Source: Mycoplasmatales bacterium (lineage in GTDB: Bacteria > Bacillota_I > Bacilli_A > CBDATW01). Taken from it: a DNA stretch of 64,000 nt. A program made the position numbers and the translations under genes. The stretch spans positions 656-64,655 of the forward strand of contig CBDDCI010000002.1 in the NCBI GenBank assembly GCA_965226165.1, given 5' to 3'. Every line of letters starts with the position of its first letter. The first letter of the stretch is position 1. Positions 4,136-4,339 of the stretch are shown here, one piece after another. The notes under the pieces are model-generated. The model worked only from the letters and a program-made list of their open reading frames with translations. It was not told the origin of the DNA and made no database searches.

Positions 4136-4339
4136 TCATGATAGAATTTTTAGGCCTGATCCTTTAACAGATTTTAAACCTTTTGCTTTTTTAACATTAG
4201 ATAATCCTGATGCTTTTTTAACAGTTGATAATCCAGATGCTTTAATAATTTTTTTTTCTAACATATTTTTATTTTTATCATTTGAAATAATAACGCCATT
4301 AACAATCATAATATATACTATATCAACATAATATTTCAT
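4136..4339 (-). CDS. Small Lys/Gly-rich basic protein with K(A/G)SGL repeats. It is a candidate core/DNA-condensing protein.
   Basis: 67 aa ending KASGLSTVKKASGLSNVKKAKGLKSVKGSGLKILS. A positional homolog lies between the ATPase and the MCP candidate in all copies. Confidence 0.45.
   Translation of the reverse strand: MKYYVDIVYIMIVNGVIISNDKNKNMLEKKIIKASGLSTVKKASGLSNVKKAKGLKSVKGSGLKILS

Follow-up and report, generated by a model that had tools for sequence, protein, structure and literature searches.

The question raised by this locus is whether small glycine-containing proteins of Polinton/Maverick elements are substrates of the protease that the same elements encode. The window, i.e., the whole stretch of 64,000 nucleotides (nt) analyzed here, comprises three Polinton/Maverick copies, which stand out as AT-rich stretches with a GC content of 17–20% within DNA of about 35% GC. 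These elements are thought to be ancestral to adenoviruses, virophages, and giant viruses, and we know of no Polinton particle that has been studied biochemically. The original prediction, made from the letters of the window, had noted KGSG(I/L) motifs shared by a small basic protein, here called mini-protein, and by the protein encoded ahead of the protease, here called precursor, and had proposed them as cut sites in an adenovirus-like maturation cascade. According to our analysis, this interpretation is partly supported, its meaning having been guessed broadly correctly. The explanation that we prefer, and to which we give slightly more credence than doubt, is that a glycine motif marks the substrates of the protease, that the protease is expressed in a Gag-Pro-like manner, and that the mini-protein is the precursor of a packaged peptide. 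The three copies are located as follows:

~1–8500, minus strand: Polinton copy 1
~20400–34800: Polinton copy 2
~37000–50000: Polinton copy 3, a diverged lineage

The hallmarks of Polintons are a protein-primed DNA polymerase PolB matching PF03175 (4e-27) and, by Pfam, an rve integrase (3e-11), a Pox_A32 packaging ATPase (6e-8), and an adenain of the Peptidase_C5 family. The virion module has the same order in all copies, namely integrase, a protein of 315–364 amino acids (aa), a 230-aa protein, a 125-aa putative membrane protein, ATPase, mini-protein, a presumed capsid protein of about 400 aa, the 195-aa precursor, protease, a DUF5679 zinc-ribbon protein, and fibre-like open reading frames (ORFs). 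The labels capsid (ORF 30089–31285) and penton (ORF 28156–28848) were assigned from position and size only, neither ORF having a Pfam or PHROG match.

A genuine adenain-type protease is encoded by these elements at the following positions:

31870..32307, plus strand: protease ORF of copy 2, in the -1 frame
1922..2368, minus strand: protease ORF of copy 1
43360..43824, plus strand: protease ORF of copy 3, where a run of T8 instead of T9 brings an ATG into frame

Its identity is a direct observation. Peptidase_C5 (PF00770) was matched with 27.3 bits by copy 2 and 25.7 bits by copy 3 at a cut-off of 21.3, and the catalytic His, Asp/Glu, and Cys together with the oxyanion Gln occur in the expected order, H53, D69, Q98, and C105 being invariant across five lineages. 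For the AlphaFold2 model of the protease domain (predicted local distance difference test, pLDDT, about 62–90), the top Foldseek matches in the Protein Data Bank (PDB) were the adenovirus proteases 4wx4_A and 1nln_A (E about 3e-4), followed by other clan CE enzymes.

The candidate substrate for which the cut-site reading is well supported by sequence conservation is the precursor. Its intact gene is found in copy 2, and its glycine sites (↓ marks the putative scissile bond) are distributed as follows:

31301..31888, plus strand: precursor of copy 2, 195 aa, intact
31508..31516, plus strand: site A, REGG↓S, after residue 71; GX↓G in other lineages
31655..31663, plus strand: site B, KKKKGG↓D, after residue 120; kept in part of the family only
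31769..31780, plus strand: site C, NGS↓GI, after residue 158; before the hydrophobic pX-like segment IFTRLLLLLIGSMIPSLL
31838..31849, plus strand: site D, KGS↓GV, after residue 181; 8 codons (21 nt) upstream of the slippery run
2370..2911, minus strand: precursor of copy 1, frameshifted and with an internal stop; QNGG↓N, KRGG↓N, QNGG↓S, KGS↓GS
42809..43373, plus strand: precursor of copy 3, with several frameshifts; MIGD↓G, KGS↓GI, KGS↓GI

The sites separate segments of different character. An N-terminal domain is followed by site A, an amphipathic segment (hydrophobic moment 0.5), site B, a linker, site C, a hydrophobic segment of 23 residues (mean Kyte-Doolittle hydropathy 1.17), site D, and a basic tail of 14 residues, GVCCNKKDNFFLKK. 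All peptides that the original prediction had quoted exist in translations of the window, among them EQNGSGIF and LNKGSGVCC in the copy 2 precursor as well as NQKGSGIFSF and KKKGSGISNK, which lie within the frameshifted copy 3 remnant 43185..43373. For the precursor the quoted GSG strings hold, while the two GG-X sites REGG↓S and KKKKGG↓D had been missed.

Searched from the window protein, the precursor family is narrow, with 770 close homologs and 50 cluster representatives among 1.8 billion, and via the relative P0188 a broader set of 112 proteins was reached (ENA, JGI, Logan, NCBI). For IMG/VR and JGI contigs only the single-protein scan succeeded; scans with the family alignment and with the protease of the relative L004 gave no relatives. 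Across 111 close homologs, site A is spelled GGN (51), GGS (33), or GNG (22), apart from 5 singleton exceptions. At site C, about 64 read GGS and about 37 GSG, and a few have GRG, GLG, GTG, or GKG; site D reads GSG or GKG. If one fixed scissile bond is assumed, these spellings therefore place an invariant Gly at P2 and a second Gly at either P1 or P1′, i.e., a dual GG↓X / GX↓G rule. The same rule reaches far into more distant sequences: among 102 relatives with 25–55% identity, sites A and C each carry GG or GxG in 101 of 102 sequences, site D does so in 93 of 101, and the three sites keep their aligned positions in relatives down to 22–30% identity. Spellings in distant lineages include IGD↓G, GE↓G, GS↓G, GG↓F, and GG↓A at site A and GN↓G, GG↓S, and GG↓F at site C. 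Both the conservation of the motif and its switching between two forms are observed directly, and the conservation in orthologs on which the original prediction had been made to depend is thereby confirmed for the precursor.

The statistical argument rests mainly on position. Gly is rare in this proteome (1–3%), and reaches 7% and 10–17% in the two small proteins. Counting of motifs within single proteins was dropped as the main argument and replaced by position-specific conservation. Three aligned GG/GxG windows are common to six precursor homologs of 22–70% pairwise identity, and none of 5000 composition-preserving shuffles gave even one. For the mini-protein, the pattern [AG]xG[LIVF] occurred 3–4 times per protein in five of six sequences tested, compared with 0.2–0.4 in shuffles (P 5e-5 to 1.3e-3), and twice in the divergent L003 sequence (P 0.04). 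Against a shuffled background, the motif proposed by the original prediction thus stands in these two refined forms and falls in its bare GG/GxG form.

The nearest precedent for the rule is the virophage mavirus, whose capsid protein is cleaved by the viral protease at GG↓X (three sites) and GY↓G (one site), with GK↓G proposed in MV13 (PMC6048507). These capsid sites are about 12–14 aa apart and lie in a strongly basic C-terminal domain for which DNA contact has been proposed (PMC6048507). The cuts in adenovirus pMu and pVI fall at sites of this type as well (PMC7998265), for pVI also according to the chain boundaries in PDB entries. Under a mavirus-type rule, i.e., GG↓X or GX↓G in basic regions and no requirement at P4, the precursor sites and the terminal units of the mini-protein conform, so that the comparison with virophage sites suggested by the original prediction turned out in its favor. 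Gly at P2 together with Gly at P1 or P1′ is present at precursor sites A, C, and D. In the reading as adenain sites, the fixed P2 Gly and the interchange of GG↓X and GX↓G in the precursor therefore stood, whereas the (M/I/L) residue expected at P4 was mostly absent.

Comparable glycine sites occur at boundaries within other proteins of the virion module:

32314..32523, plus strand: DUF5679 zinc-ribbon basic protein of copy 2, ASG↓F before the FLSNLFSKIPILNKII tail
1709–1915, minus strand: DUF5679 protein of copy 1
43836–44042, plus strand: DUF5679 protein of copy 3, GDG↓F
25966..25977, plus strand: integrase LGL↓GN, candidate site between the PLA2-like N-terminal domain and the rve core
25594–26913: integrase of copy 2
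37009–38343: integrase of copy 3
7831–8424: integrase remnant of copy 1

The DUF5679 protein, small and very basic, follows the protease in all copies and relatives, and its conserved amphipathic tail (FLSNLFSKIPILNKII type) is preceded by [A/G]-x-G-(F/I/V), in relatives by GNG↓, GKG↓, or GEG↓. As a side observation, the zinc ribbon is fused to a PLA2 domain in L019, and a comparable tail, GIPLLGAIL, closes the precursors of animal type. At the N-terminus of the integrase is a PLA2-like domain of the parvovirus type (PF08398), whose match is weak in the window and clear in L002 and L003; the C-terminus is chromodomain-like, and the LG(L/I)↓G motif between the PLA2-like domain and the rve core is conserved.

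It must be considered at this point that the glycines could be purely structural, serving as helix caps or as flexible hinges between membrane-active helices in proteins that act uncleaved. Such a role would suit glycine sites that flank predicted helices and a hydrophobic segment, motif counts within proteins that do not exceed composition, and P4 residues that depart from the adenovirus consensus. A hinge, however, requires flexibility and not an alternation of GG-X and G-X-G at one bond with an invariant first Gly, and the same rule recurs at domain boundaries of unrelated module proteins, namely at the DUF5679 tail and at the PLA2–integrase junction. Moreover, the equivalent position in adenovirus pX is a proven cut site, and the genetic fusion to the protease described below argues for processing. 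We consequently regard uncleaved hinges as quite unlikely and retain substrate marking as the preferred function of the motif.

The second candidate substrate, the mini-protein, is encoded as follows:

4136..4309, minus strand: mini-protein gene of copy 1, 57 aa, MIVNGV...GSGLKILS; supported by homologs and the ratio of nonsynonymous to synonymous polymorphism (pN/pS)
4229..4240, minus strand: unit 1 core ASGL, Ala at P2, outside the strict GX↓G rule
4202..4213, minus strand: unit 2 core ASGL
4175..4186, minus strand: unit 3 core AKGL
4151..4162, minus strand: terminal unit GSGL, candidate GS↓G site
29897..30061, plus strand: mini-protein gene of copy 2, units GEGL, GSGL, GSGI, GNGL; disabled by an in-frame TAA at 29972–29974
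41369..41518, plus strand: mini-protein gene of copy 3, 49 aa; GRGL, ASGL, GGS, GKGL

The copy 1 ORF as first given (4136..4339, minus strand), with the C-terminal end ...KAKGLKSVKGSGLKILS, carries ten non-conserved codons ahead of the true start. Because of a stop located upstream in copy 2 and a TATATA-ATG context at that ATG, the start of the mini-protein was assigned to MIVNGV at 4309 and no longer to 4339. The gene starts at 25594, 27047, 28156, 28858, 29245, 29897, 30089, 32314, and 33160 and their copy 3 equivalents have a TATATA-type motif 8 nt ahead of them. This TATA...ATG context was found at 9 of 11 gene starts, the mini-protein ORF included, compared with 17 of 232 ATGs (P 3e-10), which suggests a gene-by-gene promoter or initiator reminiscent of the late promoters of cytoplasmic DNA viruses.

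A profile search gave 2079 mini-protein homologs at E≤0.1, and the following tallies of units and C-termini refer to the 120 distinct homologs listed among them. The protein consists of a tandem array of 2–6 units, each about 10 aa long and having the core [A/G]-x-G-L-[K/S]-x-[V/I], in which Ala occupies position -2 in about 45–65% of the units. The C-terminal GxGLK(I/T)(L/I) is kept in 116 of 120, the N-terminus is conserved too, and changes in the number of units keep the frame. The KGSG(I/L) motif described in the original prediction is therefore a real signal with too narrow a definition, since it represents a minority spelling (the units of copy 1 read ASGL, ASGL, AKGL, and GSGL, those of copy 3 include GRGLKPV, ASGLKPV, and GKGLKILQ), and in copy 2 TKGSGISNVKK falls downstream of the in-frame TAA. 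A non-standard genetic code was considered for this TAA and rejected, because the orthologue L001 has AAA (Lys) at that codon and because all other element ORFs whose stop codon was checked terminate in TAA or TGA.

A chance open frame in an intergenic tandem repeat, i.e., no gene at all, appears extremely unlikely to us as an account of the mini-protein. The ORF is indeed very short and repetitive, lacks a database family, and is interrupted in copy 2. Against this, three diverged lineages, the distant L003 among them, carry it in the gap between ATPase and capsid gene, 2079 intact homologs exist, changes in repeat number stay in frame, pN/pS is 0.33–0.57, both termini are conserved, and the start has the TATA-ATG context. 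Judged by this conservation, the mini-protein is a genuine conserved gene, and it is a plausible candidate substrate of the protease.

The mini-protein has 22–23% K+R, a net charge of +8 to +11, and an isoelectric point (pI) of about 10.2–10.5, and is, together with the DUF5679 protein, the most basic product of the element; its net charge per residue is +0.19 to +0.20, equalled among the other element proteins only by the DUF5679 protein (+0.20), while the precursor reaches +0.14. The mini-protein is Lys-rich and not Arg-rich, shows no homology to mu, pVII, or pX, gave no match in Pfam and PHROG at permissive thresholds, and had no confident fold in AlphaFold (pLDDT 58, predicted template modeling score 0.18). 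The proposed likeness to mu and pVII would be a functional analogy at best. An AT-hook reading of GRGLKP was also tried and rejected, as the GRP core is absent and Ser or Asn replaces Pro in the copy 1/2 lineage.

Only GxGL units of the mini-protein follow the strict GX↓G rule, and AxGL units (about 45–65%) depart from it. The rule fits the flanking units of the copy 3 lineage (IGR↓GL, YGK↓GL) and the terminal unit of all lineages, and some members of the copy 1 lineage have lost the first flanking GxGL site. The precursor could be the sole substrate, while the repeats of the mini-protein would be DNA-binding or oligomerization units of a Lys-rich core protein with [A/G]-x-G-L as a binding turn. 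Ala at P2 in most internal units, a repeat number of 2–6 as in polyvalent binders, a strongly positive charge in a genome with 81% A+T, and the lack of homology to any processed precursor are all consistent with such a role. Several observations speak against it, however: the terminal GxGLK(I/T)(L/I) is nearly invariant and its GxGL spelling is that of precursor-family sites A and D, the GRP core of an AT-hook is missing together with the Pro in the copy 1/2 lineage, and cleavage of an array of sites spaced by about 12 aa has been demonstrated by experiment in a basic domain of the mavirus capsid (PMC6048507). Ala-containing non-consensus sites are in some cases cut by adenain (PMC7998265), so that the units with Ala at P2 remain candidate sites. 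In relatives, tandem GxGL arrays resembling the architecture of the mini-protein are located beside site D, e.g., in P0354 (GRGLQNRKKGKGLQNRGRGLQNR) and P0322. Overall, we consider a binding role of uncut repeats somewhat unlikely and keep the mini-protein as a candidate substrate.

The arrangement of the precursor and protease genes was unexpected. The junctions in the window are:

31870..31878, plus strand: T9 run of copy 2; slippery heptamer U_UUU_UUU at 31870–31876, in register with the precursor frame; zero-frame stop at 31886–31888
~2368–2390: junction of copy 1
43350–43373: junction of copy 3

The copy 2 precursor ORF terminates in ...GAT AAT TTT TTT TTG AAA AAA TAA, and the open -1 frame of the protease begins precisely with the T9 run and has no AUG ahead of the catalytic His. 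The conserved N-terminus of the protease, LYPISNF..., begins ten codons past the start of this run, and, alone among the genes of the virion module, the protease lacks a TATA-ATG start context. An in-register U_UUU_UUU, a protease in the -1 frame, and the lack of an AUG are common to copy 2, L001, L002, and L005 (47% identical). The junctions of further relatives are located at 4817–4910 in L004, 2571–2664 in L015, 3133–3226 in L018, 1415–1432 in L012, and 3164–3175 in L017. A_AAA_AAC is found directly ahead of the precursor stop in L004 and L015/L016 (33% GC; JGI, Logan), L018 has U_UUA_AAC, and L012 has A_AAA_AAA, in each case with the protease in the -1 frame and no AUG. A stem of 14 bp follows 7–9 nt past the heptamer in L004, L015/L016, and L018, where three compensatory double substitutions, all synonymous, keep the pairing; the L004 stem has -25.6 kcal/mol (z -3.3). 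In L017, an in-frame UGA is followed by CUA, a typical leaky-stop context, and the protease continues in the same frame, while in L009 precursor and protease form a single fused ORF. Site D lies 7–15 residues upstream of the slip site in every lineage. The frame arrangement and, in relatives, the recoding signals are thus directly visible, and their occurrence in independent lineages strengthens the case for recoding considerably. The heptamers, the stem, the UGA variant, and the missing AUG, taken together, indicate that the protease is probably produced as in retroviral Gag-Pro, in a minor product that extends its own substrate at the C-terminus.

Recoding would be dispensable if the protease had its own mRNA, generated by non-AUG initiation or by splicing, which is available in the eukaryotic host, or if precursor and protease formed a true in-frame fusion with an error in the T9 homopolymer. 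In favor of one or the other are the lack of a stimulatory structure after T9 in the window lineage, the heterogeneous length of the T run, and the L019 and L003 junctions without a clean signal. The precursor C-terminus in 120 homologs reads NFFLK(N/K)-stop in about 65 (T9), NFF-stop in about 27 (T8), and is fused in frame in about 8. A sequencing or initiation origin is nevertheless difficult to reconcile with four in-register heptamers in independent lineages that always precede a -1 protease, with a stem at the right spacing maintained by synonymous compensatory changes, with a readthrough context in one lineage instead, with T9 as the modal length in two assemblies including that of the window, and with a protease that by itself has neither an AUG ahead of the catalytic His nor a gene-start motif. 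We therefore judge expression of the protease by a route other than recoding to be rather unlikely.

The mechanism that we propose can be summarized as follows. Substrates of the adenain-type cysteine protease would be marked by GG↓X or GX↓G, with Leu, Ile, or Phe as the usual next residue. Cleavage of the 195-aa precursor at sites A–D would give five pieces, i.e., a folded basic N-terminal domain, an amphipathic, weakly pX-like peptide, a linker, a hydrophobic, weakly pX-like peptide of 23 residues, and a basic tail of 14 residues, and these would act as membrane-active and core peptides released during capsid maturation, like those of adenovirus pVI and pX. A -1 slip at U_UUU_UUU, by ribosomal frameshifting or by transcriptional slippage, would yield a minor precursor–protease fusion that carries the protease into the particle, and the cut at site D would free the enzyme. 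The mini-protein would most likely be the precursor of a packaged DNA-associated peptide trimmed at least at its flanking GxGL sites, and would correspond, as an independent protein, to pre-mu or to the basic C-terminal domain of the mavirus capsid with its multiple sites. Cleavage events, slippage, packaging, and DNA binding are all steps that we infer. Of the maturation cascade originally envisaged, the adenain-type protease and the precursor sites are well supported and the mini-protein is a plausible participant. A more far-reaching version, which we regard as doubtful, assumes for this lineage and its relatives a Gag-Pro-like strategy of a double-stranded (ds) DNA virus, in which the protease arises only by -1 slippage or UGA readthrough as an extension of a pX/pVI-like polyprotein and is thereby set in dose and carried into the capsid, where it would break the polyprotein down to membrane-lytic peptides and release itself, while the mini-protein is chopped into basic peptides of about 10 residues starting with Gly, which serve as DNA condensers or as pVIc-like sliding cofactors.

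Several points weigh against the preferred explanation. Every copy shows damage, namely the in-frame TAA in the copy 2 mini-protein, the frameshifted precursor genes of copies 1 and 3, and the split PolB of copy 2; the window copies are fossils, and with all three disabled nothing here is expressed as drawn. GG/GxG counts per protein were not significant against shuffles of the same protein (P 0.05–0.7), so that the bare motif, being no more frequent than expected from composition, fails the very comparison by which the original prediction had proposed to refute itself. P4 in copies 1 and 2 is R or Q at site A, K at site B, Q at site C, and N at site D, and is hydrophobic only in MIGD↓G of copy 3 and in the first two mini-protein units of copy 1 (I, V); as P4 is mostly Q, N, K, or R instead of M, I, or L, the sites depart from the strict adenovirus consensus. 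Ala at P2 in about half or more of the mini-protein units (internal ASGL, ANGL) is unlike any conserved precursor site, and the conserved glycines adjoining hydrophobic helices could be structural. Neither the precursor nor the mini-protein has a usable match in Pfam, PHROG, or PDB sequences, and the similarity of the precursor to pX is sub-threshold (17.2 bits compared with 25; hhalign probability 2–4%). In the AlphaFold model of the natural fusion P0013, the N-terminal domain (residues 1–64) was moderately confident, residues 65–201 were below pLDDT 50, and the protease domain was confident, and this single-chain model docked neither a site nor the tail on the enzyme. RNA folding after the T9 run gave no significant structure in the window lineage (z +0.3 to +1.0), L003 and L019 have no clean -1 signal, and the spread in T-run length may partly reflect homopolymer sequencing error in a low-coverage assembly. 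Finally, cleavage at every site is deduced from sequence.

If the explanation is correct, the conserved cut-site rule provides concrete testable substrates and scissile bonds and ties the maturation logic of adenovirus pX and pVI to transposon-like relatives. If recoding does link the substrate to its protease, it would add a rare example of programmed frameshifting or readthrough among eukaryotic dsDNA elements and would also account for the packaging of the protease. For annotation, it means that an internal or non-AUG codon should not be taken as the start of the protease in these elements.

Further features of the window lie outside these subjects. PolB of copy 2 (20404–23680, minus strand) consists of two ORFs of 444 and 654 aa with an overlap of 23 nt, compared with single ORFs of about 1500 aa in L003 and L005, and the split may reflect decay, a homopolymer error, or a further slip site. 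At 9007–9250, beside the truncated end of copy 1, a low-complexity stretch contains ORFs of K/F/P repeats on both strands (KKFFQKKISPKKKFFKKKFPKK...). A conserved protein of 122–125 aa with a central hydrophobic segment is encoded between the 230-aa protein and the ATPase:

28858–29235, plus strand: conserved 122–125-aa protein
4968–5336, minus strand: conserved 122–125-aa protein
40349–40716, plus strand: conserved 122–125-aa protein

It is present in all copies and in L017 and L018 without a family match, and may be a virion membrane protein.

Among known systems, adenovirus pX (pre-mu, PF05829) is the first to be compared with the precursor. This protein, small and basic, is a precursor with GG↓X cut sites, where MRGG↓ILPLLIPLIAAAIG frees a hydrophobic Pro-containing C-terminal peptide. 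Site C of the precursor (NGS↓GIFTRLLLLLIGSMIPSLL) and, in relatives, site A (TGG↓FLSAILPILKAALPAPGIAAASG) align to the pX cut region. Of the adenovirus query sequences, that of pVI is identical to PDB 7s78_W over 250 residues, while that of pX matched only the homologous PX chain 9lr9_E of another adenovirus. By hhalign, site C and the next segment aligned with pX MRGG↓ILPLLIPLIAAAI (ILPLLIPLI) over 17 columns with E 0.027 and a probability of 1.9%, and the profile of 102 sequences with pX AAAIGAVPGIASVALQ at P 0.009, the two comparisons spanning 16–17 columns and probabilities of 2–4%. The site A region of P0334 matched Adeno_PX with E 0.0047 and 17.2 bits at a cut-off of 25, being one of 3 sub-threshold cases among 102 relatives, and the window precursor had no match to Pfam Adeno_PX at E≤10. 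In contrast to pX, the precursor is rich in Lys instead of Arg, has 195 aa, four sites, and an extra folded N-terminal domain, and overlaps the protease in the -1 frame.

The second comparison is with adenovirus pVI, a membrane-lytic core protein that is cut by adenain before its amphipathic helix (MSGG↓AFSW) and near its C-terminus, freeing a basic Cys-containing peptide of 11 aa (PMC7998265). Similarly, REGG↓SLDSIFKSL of the precursor precedes an amphipathic helix, and KGS↓GVCCNKKDNFFLKK would free a basic Cys-containing tail of 14 aa. As differences, the Cys pair is not conserved in all lineages, hhalign gave a pVI probability of 0.1% for the window family, no PDB sequence matched, and the similarity of larger relatives is confined to 8 columns (PPPFxGxW / RPFMGNW). 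In those larger animal-type homologs (P0347–P0410, 270–290 aa; e.g., L009 1242–1697), a motif RPPPF(I/Y)G(S/Q)W...GLG↓ resembles the hexon-binding N-terminal peptide of pVI (SRPFMGNW...MSGG↓; hhalign P 0.07). NFF may be conserved because of the slippery run and not for a function of the peptide, and a pVIc-like cofactor activity of the precursor tail would be pure conjecture by analogy. As no match reached a curated threshold, the precursor is treated as pX/pVI-like in function and not filed as a member of either family.

For the mini-protein, the closest functional analogue would be the basic C-terminal domain of the mavirus capsid, with which it shares [A/G]xGL units about 9–12 aa apart and a pI of about 10. 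It differs in being a separate gene for 49–67 aa upstream of a tail-less capsid gene, in the Ala at P2 of most internal units, and in the lack of sequence homology.

In adintoviruses, which are Polinton-like viruses of animals, pX-like domains form the ends of membrane-active virion proteins (PLA2X, GasderminX) (PMC8502044), whereas here a PLA2-like domain is located on the integrase N-terminus and not on the pX-like protein. For some adintoviruses, a -1 frameshift joining Hexon to Adenain ('Hexain') has been suggested from single-sequence prediction (PMC11071296). In our case, the proposed partner of the protease is the pX/pVI-like precursor and the support is comparative, comprising four heptamers, a covarying stem, and a readthrough variant; our literature search found no paper describing a precursor–protease frame arrangement as present here. 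The closest parallel to this arrangement is retroviral Gag-Pro/Gag-Pro-Pol. Unlike retroviruses, the elements are dsDNA elements of another virus realm with a clan CE cysteine protease instead of an aspartic protease, and the window lineage has a bare U9 without detectable structure. In common with them, precursor and protease are in overlapping 0/-1 frames with an X_XXY_YYZ heptamer just before the zero-frame stop, a downstream stem at 7–9 nt, and a sister lineage with a leaky UGA, and the protease would excise itself.

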